Of a DNA stretch of 64,000 nt, positions 10,679 through 30,186 are shown in pieces (position 1 is the first letter of the stretch; every line of letters starts with the position of its first letter). The stretch is from Clostridia bacterium (GTDB lineage Bacteria; Bacillota; Clostridia; UBA1212). A model generated the notes under the pieces. That model worked only from the letters and a program-made list of their open reading frames with translations. It had not been told where the DNA came from and ran no database searches. The stretch is from the NCBI GenBank assembly GCA_017444825.1, contig JAFSVU010000015.1:413-64412 (forward strand), read 5' to 3'. A program made the translations under genes and the position numbers.

Positions 10679-10692
10679 GCACTGTTTGATTC

Positions 10693-10729
10693 GCGGCCGC
10701 CCCTCGGGGGAGAGGCGGCGCATTTTTTA
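10693..10729. terminator. GC-rich hairpin (gcggccgcccctc/gggggagaggcggc) flanked by an A6/T6 tract; terminator-like, orientation ambiguous
   Basis: The hairpin is followed by TTTTTT on the plus strand. The T-run overlaps the stop codon of the minus-strand gene 10727..15910. No U-tract follows the hairpin on the minus strand. Confidence 0.3.
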
Positions 10730-13700
10730 CTCAAACTTCCATTTGTCTTTTTCGTTGATCGTCACCCTGATCCTGTCTGTCAGGCTGAACGCTCCTGTGC
10801 GTGGGTTCCTGATGTACGCGCTCTCCGCCGTAAACGTTCCCTCCACAGCGCCGCGTATCACGTAGGATACCGAGATCTCAAAGCCGTATTCGGGGCAGTC
10901 CTGTCTGAACCAGTTATTCTCGTTTTCGTAGATGCGGTTGTGCAGCGAGACGCCTCCCGTCATATTCTGGCCGCTGCTGTTATAAATGTAAGCGTATGCC
11001 GCCACCGTTCCGGACTCATACCGGGAGGAGGAGCTCGAGTCGATCGAGAGGAATCTGGCACCCGACGGTATCAGATCATAGAGTTCAAAGTACTCGTTTA
11101 CTCTGGTCGATCTTCCGCTGATTCGGAGAGTCACCAGGCAGTTGCCGTGGGAGTCATTGGTCATTGCCTTGGTTATCGAGACACGGCCGTCAGACTTTTG
11201 TCCGTCCAAAAGGGCCTCCTCCATGGTTCCCCTGTAATACACTCCCACCTTTGTGTCTCCTGGCAGACTCGTCTTCAACGAGTCAAGCTCCTGCTTTGAA
11301 AGAGTCAACGTAAAACTGCATCCCGGTTCGATCTTTACCGTCTCGGACGATTCGCCGATAGTATAGGTAAATTCGAGAGCATCAGCGGCTTCCCGGGGCA
11401 GGAAATGCTTGATATACGCGGCAAGTGCTATTCTGTCAGACACCGAATTCGTTCTGTTTTCGGAAAGCCAAAGCGCCAGCTTCGCGGCATCTTCCCGGTC
11501 GATCCTTGCGGCGCTCATGAGGGCAAGGCAGGACAGCTGAACAGTCGTGTCAAAATCACCGGCTTCGAACTTCAGCGAGCCGTATTCGCTGTCTTCAACG
11601 CCAATTTCAGACTTTACAAGAGCATAGACGTCATGTGCCGCGGGGTAGTCGCCGCAGACGGCAAAACCAAGTGCCAGCAGGAGCTTCGCCTCCGGAGAGT
11701 AGTTGCCCGCTTTGTCTGCGATCACGTAAAGTGTATCCAGAACGGGTTCTCCCAGCGCCGCCAGTGACACGACATTCGAGATCAGTTTCTCGGGCGACTC
11801 CTGATCGGTCGAGTTGACCGACGTACTGCAGGCTGATGCTATGTAATTCAAGGTTTGAGTGTCAAACGGCAGCCCGAGAGTCAGTACCAGAGCAGTCAGT
11901 TCGGGATCCGGCTCCGAATAGGGGAATACCCGGAACTGTCCGTCCGAAGCCGAGAAGTTGTCCTTCGTCAGCCTCATGAGCCTTTCCTGCTCCTGATCCG
12001 CCTTGATTCCGTAGAGGGCTTCCCTTGCCGCGGCTGCCGCGTAAAGACCCGCATATTCATCGGTCCTGCCGCTTCCCCTGTCGTTTGACAGCAGGCTTGT
12101 TATCCTTTCGTAGAAAGCGTAGGACGGCGTTCTGTTCGCAAACACAACTTTAACGGGATAGTACACAGGCGTGATGGTCTTGAGTTCGGAAACAGCCAAT
12201 GATCTTCCCACATCCGCGGCAACGGCACTCGTCACGAGGGTGAAGTCCGTTGTCGCAGCATCTTTGTTTTCTCCGCATTCCGCGTACACGGTCACGTGGT
12301 ACTGTCCCGGCTCCGACAGCTCGAATTTCAGCCAGCACCTCTCCTTTGAGTCTGCGCTGCCCGACGTTCTTCCTTTTTCATTGCCGAGAGCATCCGTAAG
12401 CACCGCGGTGTAGTTGACCGTTCCCGTAGCTTCCGATCCGTAGGATCTTGCGCTGAGGGATATTGTATCGCCAACGATATACTGCTCGCATATTCCTACA
12501 TTTACGAAGAAAGGCAGGGTGCAGATCACGTCCGAGACCGATGCGCCGATCTTCAGCTTTCCGTTTTCGGAGCCCGTGCCGCAAAGCGCATATGTCGAGA
12601 TCCTCCATGAAGTGATGTTGTCGGGGACGGTGAAGACCAGTGTCCCGCAGCCGTCACTGTCGAGTTCCACCACGTCATAGACCGGATTGTCCGCGAAATA
12701 CTTTCTTATATACCAGTCCGAGCTGCCGATGCCGCCGTCGCTGAGCCCTTCTGATTCGGGAGCCGCGCCCGGCCTTTCATCTGATAACGACAGAGAGTTA
12801 TCGGAACCGCCCTTTGAGCTCTTGGAGCCATTACTGTATGAAAGATCTCCGTAATCAACGTCCGAGTTTGTAAATGCCGGTTTAAACCTTGCGTTCATGA
12901 GAAACGTCGCTGCGCTCGACCGCTGTTTCGAGAAAATGCTCAAGGGCTCTATCTCCTGATCGCCGAGGGCAAAGCAGGCTTCATCGACGATGCTGACCAC
13001 AGCAACTCCGCCTCCTGCTCCGGGCACCTGAATCTTAATAATGGCTTTGTCCCCGGGCTTGTACGTATCCGAAGACGGGGTGATCACGGGTTTCAGCGTC
13101 GCATTGGCGGTGTCGTACCTGATCTCTTCGCCGGGTATCAGATACTCTCCGGTGGAGGAGTCGAAGACCACGGCGTAGAGATATCCGTCCGCTATCATAC
13201 TGTCGGTAAACGAAAACCGTACTTTTGACCCGTATTCCACCCCATAGATCCCGTTTGATCTTATAACAAACAGCGCTTTCCTCTTCTCCGGCGCAGTCCA
13301 GATCTCCGCCTCCACAGTGTCGCTTACCGAGTAGGTTTCGTCATTGAACAGGATCTCGGCCGTCAGGGATTGGTTGCTGCCGGAATAACCGGTGCCCGTC
13401 TTGCCCGCGGTACCGTTTAACGTATAGGTGTAAGTGTTGTTGCTCGTGTCATCGTAGAATGACACTTCGTAGGTGTAATATCCCTCAAACCCGCTGACCT
13501 CAAGGAGCGGGAACTCCGCAACACCGTTGACAAAGGACTTGACGTCGCTTTCGACCTGACTCTTGCGTACCTCGCAGGTATAATATTTAACGTTTTTCTT
13601 GGTGTATGAGTCGTACCTGGTCTTTTCGGTCCTCACTATGACGTTCTTCCAGAGCGTATAGGAAAGCGCATTTGCGGCTGACAGAGGCTCGCCAACGGTA

Positions 13701-15910: not shown

Positions 15911-16139
15911 TAAAACCGGCCCCCTTCTCGGTAACTTTGCCTACATTGTAGCACATAGCGGCCTGTTTTTGCTGTTACAATTCTTGTCACATATTTTTTA
16001 AGACGGTTTTCAGCTTTATGTTATGCCTTGAAATGCCGCATTTCCGTGGGGTAAAATATACGTAAAATATACCAGGAAATTTTGCGGTGTGCCCGCGGAC
16101 CCGCTGTCCCGGAGCACTATTCACAACAGGAGCATAAAA

Positions 16140-19100
16140 ATGAAAAGATCTTCGCTATTGATTTTGGGTGTTTTGGCGATCGCATTGGTTTGTACGGTCT
16201 CGGGCTGCAGAACGTCGCCCGGAAAAGTCGATCTCGATCCCTATGCGGTGTACAAGGAGGAAGTGACCGAGTACAAGGACAAATACACCGGCGCCAATGC
16301 GGAAACGGTTTATGCCGCAAGGGACCTTGCCAATGGCGTCAACGTCTATTACCTGAACGGCGAGCGGAACGGCATACGGGTGGCCAACGGGCACCTGCAG
16401 CTAAACTACAATACCGGCAGCGCAAACGGAGCGAAGCAGATCTCATCGATCACCGACCCTTCCGGCAAGGTCTACGTGGAGAACACGGGGGATGCTTTCA
16501 TAGAGCTTTCGGACGGCGCCCTTTACTCGACAGCGGAGGGCATTGAATCGCCGGAGCTTAATTCCTACAGGCACGGCAGTTACTACTACGATACCCACAT
16601 CATAAACAACGGCTTCGGGCGCATCAGCGAGGTGTCCGACATTTACGAGATGCCCATCGTCACCCCCGACATGACCAATATGGTCTCCGGCATCACCGTC
16701 AGCGGCGGCGTTCTTTCCTTCATGATCGACGACCCGGAGGACCCCTACGTGGGCTGGACCGGCCTTGACGTCAACGCGGACAAATACACAGCCCTCCGCA
16801 TAACGATGAAAAATAAAGCCTCCATGCTCTGCGAGGTATATGCCGCGGCGGGCAGCTTCGGTTCCATCAACAGCGACCAGAGGACATCCTTCGCCCTCTC
16901 CCCCGACGGGGAAGAGCACACCTACACCGTCCTGCTGGAGCGGATCATGGGCTACAAGGGCACCCTGAAGCAGCTGCGCATTGATTTTGACAACGCAAAA
17001 GGCGACGCCATAGAGATATCGAAGATCGAATTCCTCGAGAAGGACACCTCCCGCCCGGACGCCCTGGTGGACAGAGCCTTCAGCGTATACACCGATAAGA
17101 TAAATTCCATCGACAGATTCGTTGTGACCGGAAAAACGGAAGACGTGGCGGCGATAGGCCTTCTGACCAACGTCCCCAAGGACCGGGTGGAAAAGCTCAT
17201 CGTGAAGGACAAAAACGGCACCCACAACTCCCTTGACGGGATCGATTGGGACAGCGCAGAGTGCATTGGTTTCGATATCAAAGACACCGGAATTTTCGGA
17301 TATATTTTGCTCACCGGAAAATACTGCGGCACCCTCTCGGTATACGAGGAAGGCGATAACTACGTGATCAGACAACAGTACGAGCCTGAGGACGGTGTCC
17401 TTCGCAAAAAGATCTTTTACGAGGTGGGGCGGCGCATCTACACCGACGGTCAGCACGACTTTGACGGTCTTCTCAGGGAGACCTCCTTTGAGCGCAATCC
17501 TCTCGAAAACGTCACCGTGACGGGCGATCCTTCCCTCGGGCGGTTCCTCGGCTACGATCCCCTCGGCGGCTACTACAAGTTTTCCATCAAAGAGCTGGGC
17601 GGCTTCCACGACGCTTACTACAACAGGCCCGACGACCACACCTCTCTGCCCATCAGCTTCACCGGCGATGATTCAGGCAGGATCGTATACGTGTGCACGG
17701 CTTCGGGCGGCGGCTCTCTTGAGTGCGCGGCTCTGCTGGATGACACCAATGTGATGCTTCCCGTGGAAATGGAGGTCTGCAAAAACTTCGGCGGCGACGA
17801 CAATCCATCCACATTCTACCCGGAGGACACCCCCTTCAGCGAGACATTCTTCCCCCTTGCAGTCGAGGCAGGCAAAGAGACTAAGGTCACCGTCCTCAAC
17901 ATGTTCCAGAATTGGGGCCTATACCCGTTAAAGCAGATCTCCTCGATCCGCTTCTTCACCACCTACTACCACCTGTCGACGGGCTCCACCGAAACCAATT
18001 GCATCGCCCCGGCATTCGTGTACGGCAAGGACTTCTGGACCATCCCGGACTTCCGTCCCATGTCCGCGCCCCTCTGGGCAAGCCAGCCCCAGCACACCAG
18101 CGGAGGCTGCCCCAGGGTACTCCAGTTCACATCCTCCGACAAGGGCTTCTCGGGCCTCGAGTTCACCACCAAGTACCTGGACAGCACCGGCCCGATCTAC
18201 GCCGACGTCCGCATGAACTATCTTTCCGACGACGGACGCATTGCCGCCGCCTACCGGCACGTTGAGATGCCCCAGACCGACGAAAGCCGCGCCTACTACG
18301 ACATCGAATTCACCGTCCTCGAGGACGTGCCCATCGAGAATTTCAAAAACGACTTCACCATCTTCAGCATGGACGGCCGCTTCATATTCTACGAAAACCT
18401 TGGTTATCTCGACGAAAACAACAAGCCCGCCGTTGCAAAAACCAATGCCTCCGGCGACAAAGTGTACTATAAGCTGGGCAGTCAGTGCCCCTACATATCC
18501 ATTTTTGACTGCGACTCCACCGACTACACCAATATGGCCATTGCCGTTGCAAGCAGCGACATCACCATTGGCGGCAGAAAATACACCGGCTCCTTCCTGG
18601 CCTCCGACTACGCCTCATGGAGCCTCAACCGCACAGGCCTCACTCTCGACCTCGGCAAGGTCACCCTCCGGGCAGGCGATAAGATCAAGCTCCGGGTCAT
18701 CATCTTCCCCTTCGGCTCTCAGGATCTCAAGGGCGACGACCGTGTCCGCCTGGTCCGCGAAAACACCTGCCTGAACCCCGTGATCGCCACCTCAGAGACC
18801 GACACAGTCCTTTCCGATGATCTTCTTCCCAAGGTCATGAGCAATGACGGCCGCACCTGCGAATTCACGATCTCCGGCGGAGCCCCCAACGTGCCTGCCC
18901 TCAACGAGGCGTATTACCGCACCTGCGACTATAACGTTGCCGTCCGCGCCTACGGCTTCTCCTCCTTCGGCGTCCCCGAGATATACGAGAAGGTAAACGG
19001 CGAGTGGGTGCCCTATCAGGTGGCATCCGCCAATGGCTACGACGGCTACGCCTGCTACACCGACGACGACAATTCCTTCTCCTACGCCTTCATCGTCACC

Positions 19101-19145
19101 ATGAACGATGCGACGCCAAGGACATTCAAAATAGTCGCCGGATAA
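16140..19145 (+). CDS. large hypothetical lipoprotein (about 1000 aa)
   Basis: ATG at 16140 preceded by AGGAG. Signal peptide plus lipobox MKRSSLLILGVLAIALVCTVSGC. Transcribed divergently from the 1727-aa lipoprotein gene. Confidence 0.7.
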   Translation: MKRSSLLILGVLAIALVCTVSGCRTSPGKVDLDPYAVYKEEVTEYKDKYTGANAETVYAARDLANGVNVYYLNGERNGIRVANGHLQLNYNTGSANGAKQISSITDPSGKVYVENTGDAFIELSDGALYSTAEGIESPELNSYRHGSYYYDTHIINNGFGRISEVSDIYEMPIVTPDMTNMVSGITVSGGVLSFMIDDPEDPYVGWTGLDVNADKYTALRITMKNKASMLCEVYAAAGSFGSINSDQRTSFALSPDGEEHTYTVLLERIMGYKGTLKQLRIDFDNAKGDAIEISKIEFLEKDTSRPDALVDRAFSVYTDKINSIDRFVVTGKTEDVAAIGLLTNVPKDRVEKLIVKDKNGTHNSLDGIDWDSAECIGFDIKDTGIFGYILLTGKYCGTLSVYEEGDNYVIRQQYEPEDGVLRKKIFYEVGRRIYTDGQHDFDGLLRETSFERNPLENVTVTGDPSLGRFLGYDPLGGYYKFSIKELGGFHDAYYNRPDDHTSLPISFTGDDSGRIVYVCTASGGGSLECAALLDDTNVMLPVEMEVCKNFGGDDNPSTFYPEDTPFSETFFPLAVEAGKETKVTVLNMFQNWGLYPLKQISSIRFFTTYYHLSTGSTETNCIAPAFVYGKDFWTIPDFRPMSAPLWASQPQHTSGGCPRVLQFTSSDKGFSGLEFTTKYLDSTGPIYADVRMNYLSDDGRIAAAYRHVEMPQTDESRAYYDIEFTVLEDVPIENFKNDFTIFSMDGRFIFYENLGYLDENNKPAVAKTNASGDKVYYKLGSQCPYISIFDCDSTDYTNMAIAVASSDITIGGRKYTGSFLASDYASWSLNRTGLTLDLGKVTLRAGDKIKLRVIIFPFGSQDLKGDDRVRLVRENTCLNPVIATSETDTVLSDDLLPKVMSNDGRTCEFTISGGAPNVPALNEAYYRTCDYNVAVRAYGFSSFGVPEIYEKVNGEWVPYQVASANGYDGYACYTDDDNSFSYAFIVTMNDATPRTFKIVAG

Positions 19146-19230
19146 TCACGTCTCGCACATTGCATCTCGTCACTTGGCTTCACTTCGTGAAGAATCGTTC
19201 CTCGATGAAATGTGGTCGACGTGGGCCCCT

Positions 19231-19259
19231 ATTACTTCTTACCTGTTACTTATTACTTT
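19231..19259. repeat. heptad TTAC repeat (TTACttcTTACctgTTACttaTTAC); 28-mer identical to 20383-20410
   Basis: Perfect 28-bp direct repeat flanking the HD-domain gene. Four TTAC units at 7-bp spacing. Confidence 0.8.
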
Positions 19260-19340
19260 TCGGCTGCATTTCTGACAATATGTTTGATAGGGCATAGCCG
19301 CGGGAGAAAAAAATAAGACGTTCTTAAGATCTTGGCAGGT

Positions 19341-20309
19341 TCAGATCAGACACACTTTAACTTCCCGCTGGGTGATCTCAAAAGGCGTGCGGCCGTTGAC
19401 CGCCTGCCGGCAGATATCCAGCGTTTTTTGCATTTTTACGACCGTTTTGCAGAGCAGATCGTTGACGACGGGGTCGTTGCCGTCGACCGTGAGAGTGAAC
19501 GCGTCCTTTTCGATCCTGAGTTCCCGCACAGCCCTGTGCATTTTGTGGTGAAGCAGCTGCAAGTCATTCGAAATGGATCCCAGGTCGTAGAGAAGTACGG
19601 GGCTACGCTCGGCAGTCACGTCAATTTCATCCGCCAGGCGTACGAGCGACGCAAGATAGGGCAGACATACCTTTTCACCGTCGGGCATAGCCATAGCCGC
19701 AGGGTAGCTGTTTTCATCCATAAGATCTGTTTTTCTGTGGCCCCTGGAGATCTGAAAGACGGCGTCCAGGTGGGCTTTACTTGGAAACTCGAACAGTTCC
19801 GCGTATTTCCGGACGAACAATCCGGAGTACTCGTTGTGGAAGTCGCGTATCTGTTCAGACATCGACGCGCCGGGATGTTTCTCAAAATAATCGCCAAAGT
19901 CGATCTGCCGCGAGAAAGCCTCAAAGTCTTTTTCGGTGATTCCCATGCCTGTGTCGTGAAAATAACACCCCAGCAGCAATACGTAAAGCTCGTTCCTGTT
20001 GAGACGGCTCAGCTGGTCGCCGATCAGCTTGTTGCAGAACTGTATCACGGTTATGGTATGGAGCTCGGTGTGATCGGTGTATTCGGGGAATATGAGTTTA
20101 TAGTTTGAAAGGATGCGCTGAAGCGCGAAAACACAGTCGGTAAATCTCTTGTGAAGGCCGCCGTCAAGTTCGCGGAGCCTGTATTCGAGAGCAAAGCTGT
20201 TTGAATCGTCCAACACTGTTTTTTCACCCGCCTTAACGACTGATCTTCCCGCGGGAGTGTAGCAGAAAGAAGCCTTATTGTCAATGCGGGAACCCTTCTC
20301 GCAGAGCAC
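19341..20309 (-). CDS. HD-domain phosphohydrolase
   Basis: 322 aa. H..H (HTELHTITV) and HD (YFHDTGM) motifs of the HD superfamily. Confidence 0.7.
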   Translation of the reverse strand: MLCEKGSRIDNKASFCYTPAGRSVVKAGEKTVLDDSNSFALEYRLRELDGGLHKRFTDCVFALQRILSNYKLIFPEYTDHTELHTITVIQFCNKLIGDQLSRLNRNELYVLLLGCYFHDTGMGITEKDFEAFSRQIDFGDYFEKHPGASMSEQIRDFHNEYSGLFVRKYAELFEFPSKAHLDAVFQISRGHRKTDLMDENSYPAAMAMPDGEKVCLPYLASLVRLADEIDVTAERSPVLLYDLGSISNDLQLLHHKMHRAVRELRIEKDAFTLTVDGNDPVVNDLLCKTVVKMQKTLDICRQAVNGRTPFEITQREVKVCLI

Positions 20310-20310
20310 C

Positions 20311-20410
20311 TTTTACTTATTACCTGAGCGGCACTCCTTCACGCAGTGACCTCTTACCTTTTACCTCTTACCTTGGCGCCTGTTACTTCTTACCTGTTAC
20401 TTATTACTTT
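20311..20410. repeat. intergenic heptad-repeat element with 7 or more TTAC units in 7-bp phase plus a GAGCGGCACTCC block; inverted copy at 26433-26515
   Basis: ttttacttattacctgagcggcactcc ... ctcTTACcttTTACctcTTACcttggcgcctgTTACttcTTACctgTTACttaTTACttt. Confidence 0.75.
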
Positions 20411-20422
20411 GGGCGGCACCCC

Positions 20423-22804
20423 TTAAACAGTCCTTTTCCACCCTTCCGGCAGCGACACCCTGACCTCAAGCTCTCCGCCCCTGTCGACCCACGACACCGC
20501 AATGAGCCCTTCCGGGGTCATGACCGAGCCCCTTGCCCAGCGGAGCCCGCAGGGATGAGGGTCGATCTTTACGGTCTTGGTGCGTGCATCCGGGATGCCG
20601 ATGCCCAGGATATCGCGTAGGAGCTGGACCGCCGCAAAGGACGTGAACCCGTGGCAATAGCTGGTGCACCTGATGTCGGGGTTTTCCCAGAGGGTGCCCG
20701 GGCCCTCGCGGAGCTGGGCGCCGTAGAAAGTGTTCAGCTCACGGAAAAGAGTGTCGTATTCGCCCAGCTTTGCCAGCATGTCGAACCTGTACTGGAGTCC
20801 GATAAAGAGGCCCGCACGGCCCACCCTCGGATGGGGGTTGAACTCCGGGCAGGGACCCATGGCCCTCACTATGTTGAACAGCGTGAGGGGGGCATTGGTT
20901 TTATCTATTATGCCGGACCAGACCGTAAGGTAGGCGCAGCTTTCCGTGAACCGCTCCTTGGGCACAAGCCTGCCGTCCGCAATGTTAAACGCGTCGGGGA
21001 TGAAGGCCGGGCCCTTGCCGGGCGTGCCGCCCCGGAGGATCGCTTCCCTGAGTATCAGGCACATATTATCGCCAAGCTCCTTCCAGTCATCGCGGCCGTA
21101 AAGCTCACCTAAGTTCCTCATCATTTTTGAGGCGAGGGCATTGGCGGCGGTCGAGACAGGTGTCAAATATTCGCCCTCGTTTGAAAGTGACCAGTCGATA
21201 AAGCACCAAGGCAGGTTCTCCAGGAGACCCGTGGGGCCTATAAGCGTTTTGAAGCCGTCGACGAAGGCCTCTATCCTTTGGCGGTGTTTTTCGGCAAATT
21301 CAATGTCATTGGTTTCTTTTGCGTACTCGCAGAGCTCCAGCATGAGCCAGAAGGACCAGGTGGTGATGCCGGCGCACTCACTAAAGCTGCTCTTGTTTGA
21401 GGGGTAGCACTCCGGGAAGAAGCCCCGCCACATCATTGACGCGTCGGTCAGAAGGAAGTTTTCGATGAAGTCCCGCTCGACCTTGTGTCCGCCCGGGATC
21501 ATTCTTTCAGCGCGGCCGGTCCAGTAAGAGTCGCAGAGCCAGCCTCCACGTTCGCGCTCGGGGCAGTCCATAAATATGTCGAGGGTGTTGAGCCTGAAGG
21601 TCAGGGCCGCCGCTTCGAAGAGACGGTTGACGTTGTCGTCGCTTGTAAGGAAACCGCAGGTTCGAGTTTCCGGCGTGGTGTACTGCCTCACGGCCAGCTT
21701 CAGCAGCTTTGCGGATGCGCAGCCACGGAAAATAACCTTGAAATAGCGGCCGATCATGGGCTCCATTGACGTGAAGGATATCCTGCCGCCCTGAACACGG
21801 ATCCTGGTGACGGGATTGGCGCCGCCTGAGATCTCGTCCTTTCCGCAGTAGACGTACTGCGACTCGAGATGGATGATATCAACCGTGCAGGGGTCCGAAG
21901 TCTCGAGAGTGACGTCGATAAACCCCACCTCCTGGGTGCCCAGGTCGTATTCGAAATAAAATGATGCGGGCTCGCCGTCTTCAGCGGAGAAAGAAGCCGC
22001 GCCATTTTCGGTAAACGAGAACCTGTCGCCGGGTCTCAGGGGCTGTTCCACCGTTCTGACGTAGTCGCGAAGAGGCCTTTCGGCGAGGTCCTTGTAAAAA
22101 CCAATGGACCGCTCGAACCAGTTGTCCTCAAAAGGCACGTTGTCGTCGATCTCCGCCCTTCCCGCGGTGACAAAACGGGTGATCTTTTTCCGTTTAAGCG
22201 TCGGAAGAGGCGACCCCCTGCCTATGAGAACAGATCCGTCAGGGACAGCCGCGACCTTATCTGCGCAAAGAGACCTGTCTGTCCGCCAGGCTGTGTATGC
22301 ATCGTCAAGGTCGTATATCTCGGTCATGGCCCTGCAGTGTGATATCCGCTCGGCGTACTGCACCCGCTGGGTGAGCCTGATACCCGCGAAGGTCGCAGGC
22401 GAGGAAAGCACCTCTTTTTCTCCGGATATTATTGCGGCACGGAGAAGCCCCGGTCCCAGGACGGTGTCATTGGCGTATCCGCCGAAAGGATTCCCATAGG
22501 ACGTGACCTCGAAAGCAAACACGTTCGGGCCCTCTTTGACATACTTTGTCACGTCGATATCGTCAATGCGCAAATATCCCGATGCGGCCCTCGCAGGTCC
22601 GTGAGCACAGAGGCGGCCGTTTACGTAAAGCCGGTAGAAGCTGCGGGCGGCGACGAGCACATTGGTTTTGGGGTGTGGAAGCGCAAGATCCTCCTTCGCA
22701 AGGGTCAGTTCGCATATAAAGCCTGCCTGCACATTGGTGTCGTTTTCAAGTCCCTCAAGGAATATCGACTGCGCGTTTTCCAGTATTTTTACGTTATTTT
22801 TCAC
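20423..22804 (-). CDS. alpha-L-rhamnosidase, glycoside hydrolase family 78 (cytoplasmic)
   Basis: 793 aa. MDCPERERGGWLCDSYW matches the GH78 DCPxRER signature. No signal peptide. Confidence 0.75.
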   Translation of the reverse strand: MKNNVKILENAQSIFLEGLENDTNVQAGFICELTLAKEDLALPHPKTNVLVAARSFYRLYVNGRLCAHGPARAASGYLRIDDIDVTKYVKEGPNVFAFEVTSYGNPFGGYANDTVLGPGLLRAAIISGEKEVLSSPATFAGIRLTQRVQYAERISHCRAMTEIYDLDDAYTAWRTDRSLCADKVAAVPDGSVLIGRGSPLPTLKRKKITRFVTAGRAEIDDNVPFEDNWFERSIGFYKDLAERPLRDYVRTVEQPLRPGDRFSFTENGAASFSAEDGEPASFYFEYDLGTQEVGFIDVTLETSDPCTVDIIHLESQYVYCGKDEISGGANPVTRIRVQGGRISFTSMEPMIGRYFKVIFRGCASAKLLKLAVRQYTTPETRTCGFLTSDDNVNRLFEAAALTFRLNTLDIFMDCPERERGGWLCDSYWTGRAERMIPGGHKVERDFIENFLLTDASMMWRGFFPECYPSNKSSFSECAGITTWSFWLMLELCEYAKETNDIEFAEKHRQRIEAFVDGFKTLIGPTGLLENLPWCFIDWSLSNEGEYLTPVSTAANALASKMMRNLGELYGRDDWKELGDNMCLILREAILRGGTPGKGPAFIPDAFNIADGRLVPKERFTESCAYLTVWSGIIDKTNAPLTLFNIVRAMGPCPEFNPHPRVGRAGLFIGLQYRFDMLAKLGEYDTLFRELNTFYGAQLREGPGTLWENPDIRCTSYCHGFTSFAAVQLLRDILGIGIPDARTKTVKIDPHPCGLRWARGSVMTPEGLIAVSWVDRGGELEVRVSLPEGWKRTV

Positions 22805-25800
22805 TTAGTTTCCTCCGTAAACCGATAATTCGTAGATCGAGCACCAGCCTGCAGTCTCAGGGACGGATACCCTTATGAACCTTGCATTCGCTTTTATGTC
22901 GATCCTGTCGAGATCCCAATCCAGCATGTCCGTTTCAAGAACCGTTGTCCAGGTGACCCCGGAAGGTATGTTTTTCGTGCCGGGTTTGCCCTTCTCCTCA
23001 GGGTCGTCGGCGGATATCTCAACTTTGTAACTGTATGCCGAATTTGACTCCCAGAGTATGGTGATGTCGCTGACGTTTCTGACCTCGCCAAGGTCAACCA
23101 CCACCCATTTTTCGCCGGAAGTGCCCGCCGCGCTCCAGCGGGTCGTTTTCTCGCCGTCCACCATGTTCTTCGATACGTGGCCGCCTTCGACGCCGTTGCA
23201 GTAGGTGTCGCAATCCTTGGCAATATTCGTCCTCGTCTCCTCGTATGGTGCGATCTGCCCGGGTTCGATAACGTCAACGTCCTTGCCCGGATTCAGCTTC
23301 TCTTCGACCTGCCTTGTGGTCTTTGTCTCCGTGACCGCCACTTTTGAAGACGCTCTCACGTCGGAAGACGACGCAGCGGCCATAAACTCATATTCTCCGG
23401 AAATTACCTTCCAGGACATGTCGGAGGTAAAGAAGGACTCCAGCTCGTAATTTGTGACTATGGCGCTTATCGTCGCGCGCTCCCCGGGCTTCAGCGTCGC
23501 AGTTTTATCGAAACCGCAAAGCTCTTTTTTAAGGCTCAGCAGTTCCTCCGAATCCGGCTTTGTCACGTAGAACTGCACCACCTCACGGCCCTCTCTGTCG
23601 CCTGTGTTTTTAACTGTTACGCTGAGGGTGCAGCTGCCGTCGGCATTGGCGTGTGCGGTGAAATCCGAGTATTCGAACCTGGTATACGTAAAGCCGTGGC
23701 CGAAGGGATAGGCCACGTTTACCCCGAATTTTTCGTAAAATCTGTAGCCGACGTAAACGTCGTCCCTGTACCGGGTCACGGATCCGGTGCCGGGGAAATC
23801 GTAATAGTACGGCGTGCTTTCATAGGTCTCCGGCCAGGTGCAGGTAAGTTTTCCCGACGGTGCGGTCTTTCCGGAAATGATATTCGCAAGAGCGGTGCCG
23901 AAGGACTCCCCGGGGTAGCCTGTCCAGAGGATCGCGTCAACGCTGTCCCTCCAGGAGACTGTCTCCACCGGATCTCCGGTATTTAAGAGAACGATTACTT
24001 TTTTCCCTTTTTCATGGAAAACTTCGGACACCCTCCCGATCATTGCTTTTTCGTTCTCGTCCAGCAGGAAGCCGCCCTCGCCCGATGGATTGTCTTCACC
24101 TTCGGAGGATCTTCTTGAGATTGCGATCACCGCCGCCTCGCAGGTCTCGGCCCAGTTCGGAGCCTCTTCGTCAAATTCCTTGCGGATCTTGTTGGAGTAT
24201 GCAAACCACAGGGCCGCCTTGGTTTCGATGAAATATCCCGCTTCCAGAAGCCCCGTCTCGATGCTCTTGCTGCATGACGTAGAGACCCCTCCGGAGCCGG
24301 CCCCGCCGTAAACGGGATCATACGCGGCCATGCCTATAAGCGCAAGTTTTGACTGTTCTTTAACGGGGAGCGCATTTCCTTCGTTTTTCAGAAGCACCAT
24401 TCCACTCTCCGCGGCCTCAAGGGCAGCCTCACGGCTCTTTTCAAAATCGGGCTCTTCGGACGTTCTCTTTTTGCCTCCCAGCATCTTCTCATAAGCCTTC
24501 GACCGCGCAACCACCGAGAGTATCCTTTTGCAGCACTCGATGCATTCAGCCTTCGTTTCCGTCGACGTCTTCATGGCTGCAAGTATTTCGCTGTACTGGT
24601 CTGCAGTGCCCGGTTCGGTGAGGTCGTTTCCGGCATTCACCTTATCTGTCACGGCCCCGCCGGAGCCCCAGTCGGACATTACAAGGCCTCTAAAGCCAAA
24701 CTCGTTTCGCAGCACGTTCAGCAGCGGCCTGTTCACCGATGTATAAGTGCCGTTCAGTCTGTTGTAGGAAGACATTATGGTGAGCGGATCCGCTTTTCTC
24801 ACAAGATAGCCAAAGCCCCTGAGATATATCTCCCGGACGGCTCTCTCGTTGATCCTGGCGGAGACTACTCCTCTGGCTGACTCTTGATTGTTTGCGGCAT
24901 AGTGTTTTCCGGAAACGCCAATGCCCTCCGACTGTACGCCCGAGGCGTAAGCCGCCGCCGCTATTCCCGTAAGGTAGGGGTCTTCCGAATAGTATTCGAA
25001 GTTTCTTCCGCCCAGCACCACTCTCTGGATGTTCATGCCGGGTCCCAGAATGACGTCCGCACCCATGGCGTCACAGTCGCGGCCGATAGCCTTTCCCACG
25101 TTGTATATATTCTGGCGGTCCCATGAGGAGGCAATGTTCGCACCGCAGGGATACCAGACGGTAGGTGTCGCAAGCCGCACGCCCTGAGGACCGTCCGCCA
25201 ATGAAACAAGAGGTATCCCAAGCCTTGCTATCGGCGTTGTCGCTCCCGCAGAGCCGGGGACCGGATTTTCGCCGTAATAACCCACCACCAGCGAGGCCAT
25301 TTCTTCGTCGGTCATTTCCTCAAGCACCTTGCCGATGCCCATCTCCGTTAAGAGCACCACTCCGTCCCTTATGAGCAACGTGCTTTCACCCACGGTCCCG
25401 GACGTTTTGTCCCTCACGGATATCGTTACCATGCGGGTCTTTCCGTCCGCCGCAGCGCCATTCTCGACGTGAAAACTGTGGCCCTTTGCGGGGATCTCGA
25501 TATTTTCGGTCTTTTTACCCTGCAGCTTTGTCTTGCCCGTATAGCAGATCACATCGCCCGCGTCCCTGTACTCCGCCTCTTCAAGAAGCTCGGTCTTTAA
25601 GGTAACGGTCGCATTGGTTATTTTATCGTTCGTAATGTCCACCGCCAGCGTCACGTCGTCCGAATCCACGGTAAACATTGCCAGGCTCAGCTCGATTTCC
25701 GATCTCTTTACCGAATCCACTTCGATCTTCTCCTCATACTTTTCGTCAATTTTCTTATTCCCGCAACCGCCGAGGACCGCCCCGCAAAGAACGGCCGCAA

Positions 25801-25843
25801 GCGTCAATGAAACCACCGCAGCAAGTCCTAAATTTTTCAACAT
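22805..25843 (-). CDS. GH3 beta-glucosidase/beta-xylosidase-type lipoprotein with a C-terminal F5/8 type C (discoidin) domain
   Basis: Start at 25843 (MLKNLGLAAVVSLTLAAVLCGAVLGGC, lipobox) with a GGAGGG ribosome-binding site. GH3 N-terminal domain motifs: GPGMNIQRVVLGGRNFEYYSEDPYL, KHYAANNQE, VMSDWG. C-terminal WSAAGTSGEKWVVVDLGE is discoidin-like. Confidence 0.75.
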   Translation of the reverse strand: MLKNLGLAAVVSLTLAAVLCGAVLGGCGNKKIDEKYEEKIEVDSVKRSEIELSLAMFTVDSDDVTLAVDITNDKITNATVTLKTELLEEAEYRDAGDVICYTGKTKLQGKKTENIEIPAKGHSFHVENGAAADGKTRMVTISVRDKTSGTVGESTLLIRDGVVLLTEMGIGKVLEEMTDEEMASLVVGYYGENPVPGSAGATTPIARLGIPLVSLADGPQGVRLATPTVWYPCGANIASSWDRQNIYNVGKAIGRDCDAMGADVILGPGMNIQRVVLGGRNFEYYSEDPYLTGIAAAAYASGVQSEGIGVSGKHYAANNQESARGVVSARINERAVREIYLRGFGYLVRKADPLTIMSSYNRLNGTYTSVNRPLLNVLRNEFGFRGLVMSDWGSGGAVTDKVNAGNDLTEPGTADQYSEILAAMKTSTETKAECIECCKRILSVVARSKAYEKMLGGKKRTSEEPDFEKSREAALEAAESGMVLLKNEGNALPVKEQSKLALIGMAAYDPVYGGAGSGGVSTSCSKSIETGLLEAGYFIETKAALWFAYSNKIRKEFDEEAPNWAETCEAAVIAISRRSSEGEDNPSGEGGFLLDENEKAMIGRVSEVFHEKGKKVIVLLNTGDPVETVSWRDSVDAILWTGYPGESFGTALANIISGKTAPSGKLTCTWPETYESTPYYYDFPGTGSVTRYRDDVYVGYRFYEKFGVNVAYPFGHGFTYTRFEYSDFTAHANADGSCTLSVTVKNTGDREGREVVQFYVTKPDSEELLSLKKELCGFDKTATLKPGERATISAIVTNYELESFFTSDMSWKVISGEYEFMAAASSSDVRASSKVAVTETKTTRQVEEKLNPGKDVDVIEPGQIAPYEETRTNIAKDCDTYCNGVEGGHVSKNMVDGEKTTRWSAAGTSGEKWVVVDLGEVRNVSDITILWESNSAYSYKVEISADDPEEKGKPGTKNIPSGVTWTTVLETDMLDWDLDRIDIKANARFIRVSVPETAGWCSIYELSVYGGN

Positions 25844-25909
25844 GGCGTCCCTCCGGATCGGCAATAAAAGTCACTTCATTATACCATTTTACAGATTATA
25901 TTCAATCTG

Positions 25910-25937
25910 TTGACATGTTCCGCAGGTGTGATATAAT
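25910..25937 (+). promoter_or_regulatory. sigma-A promoter of the fur/zur-like gene (-35 TTGACA at 25910-25915; extended -10 TGaTATAAT at 25929-25937)
   Basis: Consensus hexamers with a 16-bp spacer. Confidence 0.55.
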
Positions 25938-25944
25938 GAGTCCT

Positions 25945-25967
25945 AATTTGCGATGGATTCGCAAATT
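25945..25967. promoter_or_regulatory. perfect 9-5-9 palindrome AATTTGCGA-TGGAT-TCGCAAATT; putative Fur/Zur-family operator (autoregulation)
   Basis: It lies between the -10 element and the fur-family start codon. AT-rich inverted repeat typical of Fur-family boxes. Confidence 0.5.
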
Positions 25968-26021
25968 CGCCAATGTCATGCATGGCCAAAACCAGTATTC
26001 CCGTTCCGAAAGGACTTAAAA

Positions 26022-26417
26022 ATGAGCACATATGCCACAAAACAACGAAAAATATTGACGGACTACCTTGAGGCCCATCCGGATACGATGGTCACCGCCG
26101 ACGAGATCGGAGACGCCCTCGAGAGCTTCGGCATCAGCAGGAGCGCCATCTACCGCAACCTGGCGGAGCTGGAGTCGGAGGGCAGGATAAGGCGGTCTGT
26201 GCGCGAGGGAACCAGGAAGGTGTTCTTCCAGTACGTGGACGCGGAGCATTGCCGCGGAGAGCTTCACCTTTCCTGCAAAAAATGCGGAAGAACGATCCAT
26301 ATGGACCACGAGGCTGCGGAGGCGCTGGTGGCCGACATAGCCGGGAAGCAGGCCTTTGAGATCGACAAGGCGGAGACAGTGCTGTTCGGGGTCTGCGGGG
26401 ACTGCCGGAATAAATAG
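26022..26417 (+). CDS. Fur-family metalloregulator (Zur-like, given the adjacent ZnuC/ZnuB-type transporter genes)
   Basis: 131 aa from the ATG at 26022. C-terminal CxxC...CxxC motifs (CKKCGRTIHMDH ... CGDC), Fur-like. Confidence 0.7.
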   Translation: MSTYATKQRKILTDYLEAHPDTMVTADEIGDALESFGISRSAIYRNLAELESEGRIRRSVREGTRKVFFQYVDAEHCRGELHLSCKKCGRTIHMDHEAAEALVADIAGKQAFEIDKAETVLFGVCGDCRNK

Positions 26418-26432
26418 AAGCGGTGCCGGACA

Positions 26433-26515
26433 AAGTAATAGTTAAAGGGAGTGCCGCTCAAGTAGTAAGTAAAAGGTAAGAAGTAAGAGTTACCAGGTAG
26501 GAAGTAATAGGTGCG
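26433..26515. repeat. inverted copy of the heptad TTAC/GTAA repeat element
   Basis: The reverse complement reads cacctatTACttccTACctggTAACtcTTACttcTTACcttTTACttacTACttgagcggcactccc, matching 20311-20410. Confidence 0.7.
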
Positions 26516-26520
26516 ATGAA

Positions 26521-27267
26521 ATGGAATTGATTTCGTGTGTAAATCTCTCGGTGGGTTACGAGGGACGGAGGCTGGTTTCCGGGATAAGCTTCAGGGTGTG
26601 CGAGGGGGATTACCTCTGCATTCTCGGGCCCAACGGGGCAGGCAAAACAACTTTGATGAAGACCATACTGGGGCTTCTGCCGCCGGTAGCGGGGCTGGTG
26701 TCCTATGGCGACGGGTTCAGCGCAAGGCAGATCGGGTATTTGCCCCAGCAGAGCCTTGTGCAGCGTGACTTTCCCGCCTCGGTCAGGGAGATAGTTCTCT
26801 CGGGCTGCACCGGAAGGATGGGCTTCAGGATATTTTACGGAAAAGAAGAGAAAAAGAGAGCTGACTCGGCAATGAACGCCCTCGGCATAGCATCTCTCAA
26901 AGACCGGTGCTACAGGGAGCTGTCGGGCGGTCAGCAGCAGAGAGTCCTCATCGCCAGGGCCCTTTGCGCCACCGAAAAGGTGATCCTTCTGGACGAGCCT
27001 GCGGCGGGTCTTGACCCCCAGGCCACGGACGAGCTTTATAAGACATTGGCGGCGCTGAACCGGGAACAGGGGACGGCCATCATCATGATCTCCCACGACA
27101 TCGGGGCGGCCAAGAGGTACGCCTCCCACGTGCTTTACGTCGGGGACAATCCCTTCTTCGGGAGCGCGGCGGAGTATGCGGCGCTTGAGTCATTGTCGGC
27201 GGGACCGGGACTTCAGACGGCGGGGTCTGCTTCCTCTGCACACAAGGGGGTGAAGCGGAATGCGTGA
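26521..27267 (+). CDS. znuC: metal (zinc/manganese-type) ABC transporter ATP-binding protein
   Basis: Walker A GPNGAGKTT. ABC signature LSGGQQQRVLIARAL. Overlaps the downstream permease gene. Confidence 0.7.
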   Translation: MELISCVNLSVGYEGRRLVSGISFRVCEGDYLCILGPNGAGKTTLMKTILGLLPPVAGLVSYGDGFSARQIGYLPQQSLVQRDFPASVREIVLSGCTGRMGFRIFYGKEEKKRADSAMNALGIASLKDRCYRELSGGQQQRVLIARALCATEKVILLDEPAAGLDPQATDELYKTLAALNREQGTAIIMISHDIGAAKRYASHVLYVGDNPFFGSAAEYAALESLSAGPGLQTAGSASSAHKGVKRNA

Positions 27268-28105
27268 CATACTGGCTCTTCTTGCGGATTTTTTCTCCTA
27301 CCCATTCGTCATTTATGCGCTGATCTGCGAGACATTGGTGTCGCTGTGCGCATCGCTGCTGGGGACCACATTGGTTTTAAAGAGGTTCTCGTTCATCGGG
27401 GACGGTCTCTCCCACGTGGCCTTCGGGGCGCTTGCCATTGCCACCGTTCTCAAAGTCACATCCAGCCTGCCTGTGGTGCTCCCTATAACCGCCGTGTGCG
27501 CGATACTGCTTCTGAGGCTCGGCCAAAATACCAAGGTCAAGGGGGACGCCGCCATCGCGATGATCTCCGTTACGGCCCTCGCCTTCGGGTATCTGCTTCT
27601 CAACAAGTTTCCCGCGACGAATAACATTGCCGGGGACGTGTGCTCGGCCCTTTTCGGATCGACTCTCATCATAACCCTTTCGCCCGCAGATGTAATAATC
27701 TCGCTGGTGATGTGCGCGGTTACGGTCGCGTTTTTCGTGGTGTTTTACAACAGAATTTTCGCTGTGACCTTCGACGAGAACTTTGCCGCCGCCACAGGAA
27801 CCAATGTGAAACTCATCAATACCGCCATGGCTGTCATCATTGCCGTGGTCATAGTGCTTGCCATGAATCTCGTGGGGTCGCTGCTGATCTCCGCATTGGT
27901 GGTGTTTCCCGCCCTCTCGGCAATGCGTGTGTGCAAAAGCTTCAGGGGCGTCACCCTCTGCTCCGCGGGTATTGCCGTCTCCACATCGGTCTTCGGCATA
28001 CTGCTTTCCATCGTGATCGACACTCCCGTCGGCGCCACCATCGTCGGGGTGCAGGCATTGGTGTTTGCGGTCTTCTTCGTCATCGGGAAGCTCGCAAAAA
28101 GATAG
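27260..28105 (+). CDS. znuB: metal ABC transporter permease (ZnuB/MntB family)
   Basis: 281 aa, about 8 TM helices, translationally coupled to the ATPase gene. Confidence 0.65.
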   Translation: MRDILALLADFFSYPFVIYALICETLVSLCASLLGTTLVLKRFSFIGDGLSHVAFGALAIATVLKVTSSLPVVLPITAVCAILLLRLGQNTKVKGDAAIAMISVTALAFGYLLLNKFPATNNIAGDVCSALFGSTLIITLSPADVIISLVMCAVTVAFFVVFYNRIFAVTFDENFAAATGTNVKLINTAMAVIIAVVIVLAMNLVGSLLISALVVFPALSAMRVCKSFRGVTLCSAGIAVSTSVFGILLSIVIDTPVGATIVGVQALVFAVFFVIGKLAKR

Positions 28106-28761: not shown

Positions 28762-30186
28762 ATGTTGAAAAACCGCAGATTTTTTTTGTACTTGATCTTT
28801 GCAGTGATGGTTCTCGCCATGCTGGCGGGGTGCGTTCCTGCCGAACCGGCAGACCCGAAGCCCACTGAGAATGCAGCAACCGACACAAGCGCTCCCGAGG
28901 ACGGCACCGGTTCTCCCGATGCAACACCCGGTGAAGATGCAACCGCGGCTCCCACTCTTGCCCCCGGCGAGACGGCCACTCCCACTCCGGCACCGACCGA
29001 TACACCTACGCCGGAACCCACGGACACGCCGACCCCCACACCCACACCCACTCCGGAGCCTACCGATACGCCTACGCCAGAGCCCACAGATACTCCGACT
29101 CCCACGCCGACCGCGACTCCTACCGCTGAAGCTACGCCTACACCGACGCCCACTCCGGCACCTCAGGGCGCAACGTCAGCGTTTCAGTTCCCCGCAAGCA
29201 ACACGACCTATGACAACAACTTTGCGAAGGAAGTTATAAAGCTTAACAACTCCCAGGCAAAGGCCGACACAAAGGCCGCTCTTGAGGCCATTGGTTTCAA
29301 CGTCCTGCCCAGGAACCAATACAACTACGAGAAGGCGGCAGACGACAAGTCCCACACGTCCGCGTTCACCATCGGAACTGCGAAGGTGAGTTATAACGGC
29401 GCCGTTCGCGACGCGGCCATCGTAGTCATCAGAGGAACCTCAGGCGGCGAGTGGTATTCGAACTTTGATTTTGTTCCTTCCCACGATAACAACGCACAGT
29501 ACGCCGAGAACTTCCTGGCTGCTTCCCAGCAGATCATCTCGAAGCTCACGTCGGCCATTTCTTACATGGACAACCCGCTGGTGCTCTTCACGGGCCACAG
29601 CCGCGGTGCCGCCTGCGCAGATCTTTGCGGCCTGCTCTACAACAACTCCGTAGGTGCTGCAAGCTGCTTCGTTTACTCATTTGCAACGCCGACCTGTATC
29701 CGAAGTGAGGCTGTAAACCAAAACTCAGCAAATATCTTTAATATCATCAATAAAGCTGACTTTGTCACCTGGTTACCTCCCGCCGAGCTTGGTTTCTTCA
29801 GGCCGGGGACAGACATTTTGCTCCCTGATACGAACAATCTCGTGCCTACGCTGACCAATATTTACTCGCCTATCAAGGGCCTTCTCACGGGAATGACTAT
29901 TCAGCAATATTATGAGGAAAAACACTCACTCACAGGTCCAGGACTTGATCCGGTTAACGGCAAGTCAGTAAACGAAGTGTTTACCGGTGTCGCTCTCGCT
30001 GCTGCAGGAACCGGTAATATAAACTCTGTTCTCGGCACTCTTAGCGAAATTGACTCAAAATCGGATCTCTATCCGATTTCCACCTTTGCGGTGAGAGCTA
30101 TGATGAACTATAACAAGCTGACCAAGATACAGCAGCAGCACGAGGTGGCGACCTACACGCAGCTCCTCGCGGCATATAACGGATAA
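28762..30186 (+). CDS. lipoprotein with Pro/Thr-rich linker and a class-3 lipase / alpha-beta hydrolase domain
   Basis: AAGGAGG ribosome-binding site. Lipobox LAMLAGC. (TPTPEPTD)n linker. Nucleophile elbow TGHSRGAA. Confidence 0.65.
   Translation: MLKNRRFFLYLIFAVMVLAMLAGCVPAEPADPKPTENAATDTSAPEDGTGSPDATPGEDATAAPTLAPGETATPTPAPTDTPTPEPTDTPTPTPTPTPEPTDTPTPEPTDTPTPTPTATPTAEATPTPTPTPAPQGATSAFQFPASNTTYDNNFAKEVIKLNNSQAKADTKAALEAIGFNVLPRNQYNYEKAADDKSHTSAFTIGTAKVSYNGAVRDAAIVVIRGTSGGEWYSNFDFVPSHDNNAQYAENFLAASQQIISKLTSAISYMDNPLVLFTGHSRGAACADLCGLLYNNSVGAASCFVYSFATPTCIRSEAVNQNSANIFNIINKADFVTWLPPAELGFFRPGTDILLPDTNNLVPTLTNIYSPIKGLLTGMTIQQYYEEKHSLTGPGLDPVNGKSVNEVFTGVALAAAGTGNINSVLGTLSEIDSKSDLYPISTFAVRAMMNYNKLTKIQQQHEVATYTQLLAAYNG

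Follow-up and report, generated by a model that had tools for sequence, protein, structure and literature searches.

Hypervariable mosaics of NARGTAA heptads and GC-rich blocks at gene ends in an uncultured Clostridia bacterium

Three intergenic sites in the genome of an uncultured 'Clostridia bacterium' from ruminant metagenomes carry short direct repeats at a period of seven nucleotides, which raises the question of whether these arrays are sites read by a dedicated factor or a repeat that multiplies and varies without one. The sites lie in a 64-kb stretch of contig JAFSVU010000015.1 (positions 413 to 64,412), referred to here as the window. The initial annotation of the window placed the arrays at 19231-19259, 20311-20410 and, in inverted orientation, 26433-26515 (sites 1, 2 and 3), took TTAC as their unit and favoured a single-strand or RNA-binding repeat protein or a structured small RNA over operator sites. 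On balance, we lean towards the view that each site is a copy or a fragment of a hypermutable, mosaic heptanucleotide element, non-coding and undescribed so far, that has no dedicated reader. The sequence does not look like a classical operator or a structured small RNA, and it is no CRISPR array.

The arrays at the three sites are real and non-random. The pattern TTACNNNTTACNNNTTAC gave six matches in the 64 kb, all of them within 19232-19256 (+), 20354-20407 (+) and 26469-26486 (−), and none in 100 dinucleotide-preserving shuffles (expected number, 0); TTAC units at 7-bp spacing are thus present at three sites, as first described. Tandem Repeats Finder reported periods of 7 and 14 at the same sites, and a relaxed scan of the 64 kb for TAC at period 7 returned no further convincing array, with a weak 3-of-4 match at 49504-49527. 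The block GAGCGGCACTCC occurs exactly at 20326-20337 (+) and 26448-26459 (−), against an expectation of 0.01. A perfect 28-mer, TTACTTCTTACCTGTTACTTATTACTTT, flanks the HD-CE domain gene, with one copy at 19232-19259 and the other at 20383-20410, and its reported duplication proved exact. The 12-mer block said to be shared by the three sites is exact in sites 2 and 3, but no clean copy of it exists in site 1; there are variants of the block at 20411-20422 and 26420-26431. Likewise, the strict 7-bp register holds within sub-arrays of two to four perfect units but not throughout site 2, the three sub-arrays of which are mutually offset by +1 and −1 nt. All seven units of site 3 are in register, but just four of them are TTAC, the others being CTAC (two units) and GTAAC (one unit).

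In the sense direction of the upstream gene, the heptad at all three sites is purine-rich and has the form N-A-R-G-T-A-A. Among 44 units from the window and from contigs L135, L136 and L147 (introduced below), collected by the sole criterion of a GTAA with a neighbour at 7 nt, positions 2-7 read A-R-G-T-A-A in 44/44 cases across three genomes. Position 2 was A throughout and position 3 was A in 27 units and G in 17, and position 1 was free (A 12, T 15, C 7, G 10). The conserved unit therefore comprises six bases rather than four, and TTAC captures only a portion of it. All unit copies are direct and none is inverted. On the sense strand, the elements contain 64-76% purines and 6-18% C, with 1-12 stop codons per element in each of the three frames; the antisense frames hold 0-4. 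The heptads are parts of a recurrent grammar, in which a GC-rich quasi-palindromic block, GGRGTGCCGCYY, is followed by 2-5 heptads and a short GC-rich end block with a mini-hairpin, the whole being repeated and sometimes accompanied by a hairpin module of about 85 nt (module M).

The same mosaic exists elsewhere. When 185,579 species-representative genomes were scanned for a block followed, after up to 30 nt, by two heptads, two contigs of metagenome-assembled genomes matched: L135, from an Oscillospiraceae genome of the goat omasum, and L136, from a goat-rumen genome labelled Desulfovibrionaceae. Both carry mosaics in which a composite unit is repeated, the GGRGTGCCGCYY block preceding 2-5 heptads and these being closed by an end block rich in GC, GTGCTGCGCGAG or GTGCGAGACGCGAG; this confirmed that the arrays form a repeat family. 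Unrelated genes flank them: in L135 an IclR-type and a Laminin_G_3 gene, in L136 PepF. The L135 element occupies the entire spacer from the stop codon to the next ATG and ends in a Shine-Dalgarno sequence and that ATG; the L136 element follows the PepF stop codon and reaches up to a U-run terminator whose hairpin is strong (−27.4 kcal/mol, z −4.5). Mosaics of modules drawn from a small set of motifs and located at gene ends were found in the window, L135, L136, L147 and L159, the last two being contigs of close strains. The individual motifs also recur: block B (GGAGTGCCGCTC) in L135, L136, L147 and L159; near-identical GTGCCGGAC blocks, comparable to block A' of site 3, in L136; the junction GTAATAGTTnnAGGGAGTGCCGC of site 3 in L135, L136 and L159; and end blocks of the GTGCTGCGCGAG and GTGCGAGACGCGAG types at the termini of arrays in L135, L136 and L158. 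The junction of block A with the stop codon, GTTTAAGGGGTGCCGC, is itself a family motif and is identical in L135. As a side observation, the Desulfovibrionaceae label of L136 (JAFTDR010000063.1) contrasts with its 45% GC, PepF, a TIR_2-domain gene and a Clostridia-type repeat, and its binning looks doubtful.

Module M, at 19149-19228 of the window, is 90% identical over 80 nt to L136 4174-4253 and therefore belongs to the repeat family; the element thus reaches 19149, beyond the limits originally given for site 1. The module also adjoins arrays in L147 and L159. In the window, it folds into a long hairpin (−32.5 kcal/mol, z −3.3), and in the L136 copy only the apical hairpin is formed, with one compensatory change from U-A to G-C, a covariation drawn from very few sequences. 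Searches for further copies returned little. BLAST of the 381-nt L136 element gave no match to plasmids and phages; the block-plus-heptad composite, a 20-mer sub-array and a 21-mer of module M gave two chance coding matches or none in IMG/VR viral contigs; the composite and the 21-mer gave none in JGI metagenome contigs; and a protein search with the concatenated translations of spurious antisense open reading frames (ORFs) of the elements found nothing at E ≤ 1. The element has so far been seen only in uncultured ruminant-gut Clostridia and Oscillospiraceae.

The purine strand of the element is the sense strand at 4/4 independent loci (site 3, sites 1 and 2 taken jointly, L135 and L136). Sites 1 and 2 are 6 kb away from site 3 and on the opposite strand, each in agreement with the local gene direction, so the orientation tracks transcription and not replication. 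The element abuts or overlaps the upstream stop codon. In L136, L135, site 2 and allele B of site 3, this codon lies within a family motif (GTTTGA, GTTTAA or AGTTAA, then GGGGTGCCGC), and the element therefore overlaps the last codons of the upstream gene; otherwise, it begins 0-6 nt after the stop. At the other end of site 3, AGGTG (26509-26513) is the Shine-Dalgarno sequence of the ABC ATPase gene. Its ATG at 26521 follows 7 nt on and is taken as the start, because the preceding, seemingly in-frame ATG at 26516 (ATGAAATGG) is not conserved and reads ATAGAATGG in alleles B-D.

These features agree with the earlier statement that the arrays are unlike classical operators: they are intercistronic or at 3' ends, their units are direct, and the promoter of the HD-CE gene (20284-20256 in a promoter scan) sits downstream of site 2. 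They are not CRISPR arrays either: whereas CRISPR repeats measure 23-50 nt and alternate with unique spacers about as long, the units here have 7 nt, there are no spacers and the blocks have 12 nt. The suggestion of a structured small RNA was not upheld. The arrays folded no better than shuffled sequences on either strand (z −0.15, −0.59, +1.07, +0.70 and −1.67), Rfam gave no match at the gathering score over the whole window and none at E ≤ 1 for 19050-20500, L135 and L136, and the architecture of the sequence differs between near-identical strains. The blocks (GCGG-TG-CCGC) are unable to form an intramolecular hairpin; RNA duplexes between blocks are stronger on the sense strand (−12 to −22 kcal/mol) than on the antisense strand (−7 to −16 kcal/mol), owing to G.U pairs.

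Comparison with relatives indicated an insertion. In L006, L009 and L012, whose ABC ATPase is 77-86% identical to that of the window, the gene order is kept and there are no arrays and no HD-CE gene. The spacer between the Fur-family and ABC genes measures 33-55 bp in relatives versus 103 bp in the window, and their convergent spacer holds a GC-rich terminator hairpin instead of arrays. Separately, relatives L009 (7882-9384), L010 and L011 carry a 500-aa HipA_C/DUF6788 toxin-kinase-like gene between the GH3 and Fur-family genes, which is absent from that place in the window.

Among close strains, the sites vary greatly. Site 3 has at least five structurally different alleles, next to a 747-nt ABC gene that differs at 0-4 positions (99.5-100% identical). 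Allele A is the window version; in allele B, block A' is replaced by AGTTAAAGGGGTGCCGCT and the Fur ORF, of 131 aa in allele A, grows to 136 aa; 14 nucleotides (two units) are added in both C and D; and allele E has a different end block. The arrays thus share with simple-sequence repeats the head-to-tail repetition, beyond chance, of a unit within their size range of 1-11 nt and the unit-number polymorphism among close strains (site 3, including the +14-nt steps), but they are not pure tracts, as position 1 is free, position 3 is A or G and 12-nt blocks interrupt the arrays. Six of ten strain contigs begin inside the array, as expected for repeated or heterogeneous sequence.

The flanks of the HD-CE gene, which itself shows 4-6 differences in 876 nt, come in three architectures or more: that of the window, that of L159 and that of L147/L148. 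Site 2 of L159 has only one unit, and the 28-mer is not duplicated; the rhamnosidase-like protein ends there in PEGWNS* versus PEGWKRTV* in the window, which means that its final codons and its stop come from the element. L147 and L148 have extra blocks and another module around the same cassette core (19296-20293): BLAST alignments were 100% identical at both cassette ends (20293-20216 and 19340-19296), the gene between them differed at 6/876 nt and the outer flanks differed. L006 and L009 lack the cassette at the syntenic site, and a look-up of the 1018-aa protein for an empty-site allele lacking the cassette found only the arrangement already seen. The HD-CE cassette is cargo embedded in the repeat region and not part of the repeat. 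The idea that the arrays are a property of a mobile HD-CE cassette was discarded, since homologs at 70-78% identity reside in seven other contexts without arrays. Over 100 homologs of the HD-CE (PF24391) gene itself, 60-78% identical to it, are known from rumen Clostridia; they are solitary, have their own promoter and terminator and stand in unrelated neighbourhoods. PADLOC returned only a weak match (E 4.5e-11), to the HD region of RT_UG24, a defence reverse transcriptase. A mobile gene for defence or for a nuclease, acting on its own, is a possibility. The coordinates of the elements and of the neighbouring genes are collected in Table 1.

Table 1. Components of the repeat elements and adjacent genes in the window (sequences are given on the sense strand)
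Feature	Coordinates	Strand	Description
1018-aa protein	16089-19145	+	no Pfam match
Module M	19149-19228	−	imperfect palindrome of about 80-85 nt; separates site 1 from the 1018-aa gene, which stops at 19145
Site 1	19232-19259	−	four heptads AAAGTAA TAAGTAA CAGGTAA GAAGTAA, then TAGG into module M
Allele-specific spacer	19260-19295	−	separates site 1 from the HD-CE cassette; replaced in L147 by two blocks and additional heptads
HD-CE cassette core	19296-20293	−	gene 19341-20216, sigma-70-like promoter 20284-20256, short hairpin and U7 after the stop
HD-CE domain gene	19341-20216	−	Pfam PF24391, E 7.7e-36
Site 2, last-unit end block	20294-20312	−	AAGGTGCTCTGCGAGAAGG
Site 2, two heptads	20313-20325	−	AGGTAA TAAGTAA
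Site 2, block B	20326-20337	−	GGAGTGCCGCTC; exact repeat of 26448-26459
Site 2, end block with mini-hairpin	20338-20353	−	GAGGTCACTGCGTGAA; L135 counterpart GAGGGCGCTGCGCGA
Site 2, three heptads	20354-20374	−	AAGGTAA GAGGTAA AAGGTAA
Site 2, 8-nt spacer	20375-20382	−	CAGGCGCC; register shifted by +1
Site 2, four heptads	20383-20410	−	28-mer duplicate of site 1
Site 2, block A	20411-20425	−	GGGGTGCCGCCC; directly after the rhamnosidase-like TAA stop (20423-20425)
Rhamnosidase-like gene	20423-22804	−	
GH3 gene	22805-25864	−	
Fur-family gene	ends 26417	+	consensus promoter 25910-25937
Site 3, block A'	26420-26431	+	GCGGTGCCGGAC; 2 nt past the Fur-family TAG stop (26415-26417)
Site 3, junction units	26432-26447	+	AAAGTAA TAGTTAAAG
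Site 3, block B	26448-26459	+	GGAGTGCCGCTC
Site 3, seven heptads	26460-26513	+	CAAGTAG TAAGTAA AAGGTAA GAAGTAA GAGTTAC CAGGTAG GAAGTAA, then TAGGTG
ABC ATPase	26521-27267	+	
ABC-3 permease	27260-28105	+	

The favoured reading of a mosaic element without a dedicated reader is supported by the insertion relative to close relatives and by the high identity of the copies in unrelated genomes. Its mechanism would combine two processes. The runs of heptads would grow and shrink by replication slippage in 14-nt steps of two units; the 14-nt differences between alleles fit the 14-nt super-period. In addition, whole blocks would be swapped between copies by recombination or gene conversion; such exchange would explain the allele-specific perfect 28-mer flanking the HD-CE cassette, and in this way the cassette may have become embedded in an array that already existed downstream of the rhamnosidase-like gene. 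At the same time, sense orientation could be tolerated at gene ends, where each heptad brings a TAA and three units would stop all frames, and the last heptad could serve as a Shine-Dalgarno sequence, so that a dedicated sequence-specific function would not be required. The expected consequences would be variable C-terminal tails, variable intercistronic spacing in the Fur-ABC operon (Zn/Mn-type) and recombination hotspots. Contingency-like tuning of the expression of this operon is plausible as a side effect.

Several observations weigh against this reading. Neutral slippage and decay do not predict an ARGTAA core that is invariant in 44/44 units next to a free position 1; the invariance suggests either recognition by something or a very recent common origin with conversion. 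The blocks and module M are kept across genomes that differ by up to 11 GC points, yet no transposase or recombinase that could account for their spread was seen nearby among the ORFs scanned. The sense orientation at all four loci and the sense-specific G.U pairing of the blocks also fit a role at the RNA level. The copies seen amount to two loci in 64 kb and two foreign contigs among the 185,579 species representatives, and slippage and gene conversion are themselves deduced from the comparison of alleles. As for candidate factors, no transposase, recombinase, ribbon-helix-helix, ParA or HutP-like gene was found by Pfam among 28 larger ORFs, which cover the window up to about 51 kb.

Heptamer repeats and mosaic repeats are both known from prokaryotes, e.g., the STRR heptamers of cyanobacteria (CCCCAGT and similar) and the intergenic BIME/REP of enterobacteria and BOX of Streptococcus pneumoniae. 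Like BIME, REP and BOX, the present family consists of a few short modules in variable number and order, positioned after stop codons or between cistrons and polymorphic between strains. It lacks a palindromic unit with a GTAG head and homology to boxA/B/C and has no BLAST or Rfam match; its variable module is a 7-nt microsatellite rather than a unit of 35-45 nt, and no RAYT-type transposase was seen nearby in the window. Heptanucleotide units were reported to be the commonest LSSR, or long simple-sequence repeats, of prokaryotes (Mrazek 2007, as cited in PMC4679880). The intergenic TAACTGA arrays of Beggiatoaceae, Cyanobacteria and Bacteroidetes lie next to start codons (MacGregor 2015, PMC4679880) and include 169 sets in a Beggiatoaceae genome, with a patchy, apparently horizontal spread (PMC4679880). 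The present family resembles these in several ways: head-to-tail 7-nt units in intergenic arrays of 2-6, in many cases immediately before a start codon, stop codons when read forward and open frames when read in reverse, no predicted RNA structure, and a patchy phylogenetic distribution that suggests horizontal spread with no evident vehicle. Unlike TAACTGA or CCCCAGT, which are fixed, the NARGTAA unit has one free position, the heptads are set in a mosaic among GC-rich blocks and a hairpin module of 85 nt, hypervariability was observed at the strain level, and the host is a rumen Clostridia lineage. The (ATCTTTC)n heptamer in the 5'-UTR of Haemophilus influenzae hmw1A is a hypervariable, proven contingency switch (PMC12721329; PMC8262952). 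It resembles the window arrays in being a heptamer repeat in a non-coding region beside a gene, presumably transcribed in the window as well, with a unit number that varies between otherwise identical strains. However, the hmw repeat is a perfect single-unit tract, forms one arm of a hairpin processed by RNase III and belongs to one gene family, whereas the present units are imperfect, the arrays show no significant fold and the adjacent genes are unrelated. Thus, the family shares the logic of heptamer repeats and differs from them in the unit sequence, the BIME- or BOX-like combination of blocks with a hairpin module, and the host.

Arrays with a GTAA core (NRRGTAA) are also widespread in IMG/VR viral contigs (L013-L132, at least 120 loci), for example in L072 (337-364), L104 (4184-4211), L110 and L124 (3203-3230 and 4325-4359). 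Several of them constitute an entire intercistronic spacer, where the first TAA terminates the upstream ORF and the last unit is followed at once by a Shine-Dalgarno sequence with an ATG; those in L032, L055/L105 and L114 precede a hairpin terminator. A crude count of their orientations showed no bias (25 versus 26), and a greedy-ORF version gave 15 sense versus 4 antisense arrays between co-directional genes (p 0.02). These figures are unreliable, however, since the set is heterogeneous and mixes intergenic arrays with probably coding ones, about 18 of them being located in long open frames on the antisense strand. In L037, L041 and L120 (GC 0.66), four GTAATGA/GTAATGG units are followed after about 10 nt by four CATCACC units on the opposite strand, a layout resembling the WATCACW heptads of omega (see below). 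The related phage contigs L026, L071, L082, L101, L102 and L121-L123 share a conserved TAGGTAA/AAGGTAA array of 4-7 units, then GGGTACCAGCAGGGCTTGT, which looks like a conserved regulatory or origin-like site.

If the arrays were read after all, the reader could act on RNA. They would then be a cis element consisting of an unstructured ARGUAA platform, (AAGGUAAGAAGUAAC)n, at a 7-nt period between blocks paired through G.U only in the sense RNA. Its reader would be an oligomeric RNA-binding protein of the HutP or TRAP kind, or the ribosomes themselves, given three-frame stops and AGGU cores resembling Shine-Dalgarno sequences, and the effect, on translational coupling, ribosome retention, re-initiation or mRNA 3'-end stability, would be tuned by the number of units. 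The uniform sense orientation in step with local transcription, the invariant positions A-R-G-U-A-A and the stronger sense duplexes between blocks speak for such a role, as do the borders of the element, 0-6 nt past or overlapping a stop codon on one side and a Shine-Dalgarno sequence with an ATG (site 3, L135) or a hairpin/U-run terminator (L136) on the other. There are precedents as well: HutP binds XAG triplets separated by 4-nt spacers on hut mRNA, in two sets of three flanking a terminator stem ahead of the hut genes (PMC2425495), and a post-transcriptional role was proposed for the TAACTGA heptamers (PMC4679880). The sites share with those of HutP the 7-nt period on single-stranded RNA, and many units are AAG or NAG plus 4 nt. 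However, AAG is in constant register in only 27/44 units, the context is a Fur-ABC operon and glycosidase genes, and no hutP-like or other candidate gene was seen among the large ORFs scanned in part of the window. Moreover, near-identical strains differ in structure to the point of losing whole blocks, site 1 lies beyond the hairpin and U7 of the HD-CE gene and may lack sense transcription, and selection against antisense insertions at gene ends could equally yield the orientation. We therefore hold an RNA-level cis element to be rather unlikely, and the same applies to the RNA platform for a repeat-reading protein in 7-nt register that the initial annotation had envisaged. A bolder version, which we rate as unlikely, would make the element a functional module of the sense RNA, in which ARGUAA heptads between G.U-paired blocks are read at a 7-nt period by an oligomeric RNA-binding protein or the ribosome and set the translation or stability of the flanking cistrons. 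It would be a hypermutable and mobile contingency switch, portable to the 3' end of any gene because it brings its own stop codons and Shine-Dalgarno sequence.

Recognition as double-stranded DNA is another alternative. The initial annotation had used the 7-bp period as an argument against it, and this argument does not stand: omega (ParB of pSM19035) binds contiguous 7-bp heptads, 5'-WATCACW-3', direct and inverted, that overlap promoters, in runs of 7-10 with a minimum of four (PMC9499535). The arrays could thus be iterons bound cooperatively by a small dimeric ribbon-helix-helix protein of this type, with the quasi-palindromic GCGGTGCCGC block as a second protein site and a role in repression, partition-like functions or nucleoid organisation. 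Sites 1 and 2 indeed contain exactly four perfect, contiguous and gapless 7-bp units (19232-19259 and 20383-20410) in a Firmicutes genome, a hexamer that stays constant beside a single free position is reminiscent of the logo of a protein-recognition site, and GTAA-core heptads are numerous in viral contigs, some of them paired with inverted CATCACC heptads. Unlike omega sites, the units (TTACYTN in this orientation) are direct only, depart from WATCACW and lie off the promoters of the Fur operon and the HD-CE gene; their number and contiguity vary freely between strains, their orientation tracks transcription, and no ribbon-helix-helix or partition (ParA) gene is present among the ORFs scanned. 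Iterons are accordingly an improbable account of the arrays.

The HD-CE cassette also raised the possibility of attC- or att-like sites for site-specific recombination of such cassettes, with the 28-mer as the duplicated core. The cassette is bounded by arrays in direct orientation with the perfect 28-mer, is missing from the syntenic site in relatives and has homologs in many unrelated neighbourhoods. Nevertheless, L159 carries the same cassette in the same place without the duplication, the homologs at 70-78% identity are entirely free of arrays, and site 3, L135 and L136 have arrays without cargo. There is no integrase or recombinase nearby among the ORFs scanned, and the cassette boundaries (TTCCCGC... 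and ...CCCGCGGCT) fall outside the heptads, which makes an attachment site very improbable. A local duplication or assembly artefact with no wider existence is scarcely credible: there are just three sites within 7 kb of the window and the homologous intergenic regions of close relatives have no arrays, as the initial annotation expected of an artefact, but the arrangement is the same in independent ENA, NCBI and Logan assemblies and homologous mosaics lie between unrelated genes in two other genomes. IS608-type TTAC targets, Kid/MazF sites (UUACU), CsrA GGA and Hfq ARN repeats, the sigma-54 −24 GGCAC element and integron attC sites were considered and dropped, as their spacing, strand or context does not fit.

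Other repeats and unusual genes of the window are recorded here. Two giant ORFs occupy 3911-15910 (−): one encodes 2148 aa with RHS repeats, the other 1727 aa that include Big_5 and the bait region of an alpha-2-macroglobulin. The GC content is reduced there (0.44-0.48 over 1-12 kb versus about 0.55 elsewhere). A 66-bp tandem repeat (two copies, 82% matches) lies at 28976-29105 inside a Lipase_3 ORF (28762-30186), and hexamer repeats of the ACACCC type lie at 32542-32585 at the start of ORF 32085-33689; both probably encode Pro/Thr-rich linkers.

The mosaic heptad element without a dedicated reader would, if this reading is right, add one more family to the selfish or neutral simple-sequence mosaics. 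Slippage alone leaves two features unexplained, i.e., the invariant ARGTAA core with its free position and the conservation of blocks across genomes, and a reader protein, if it exists, would provide a rare natural case of recognition in a 7-nt register outside HutP and omega. The element would still have practical weight, as short-read assemblies of rumen genomes are broken at the arrays. Furthermore, it rewrites the last codons of neighbouring genes, and the spacer of a metal-uptake operon varies between otherwise identical strains, so the element marks spots of rapid, possibly adaptive, variation in uncultured gut Clostridia.

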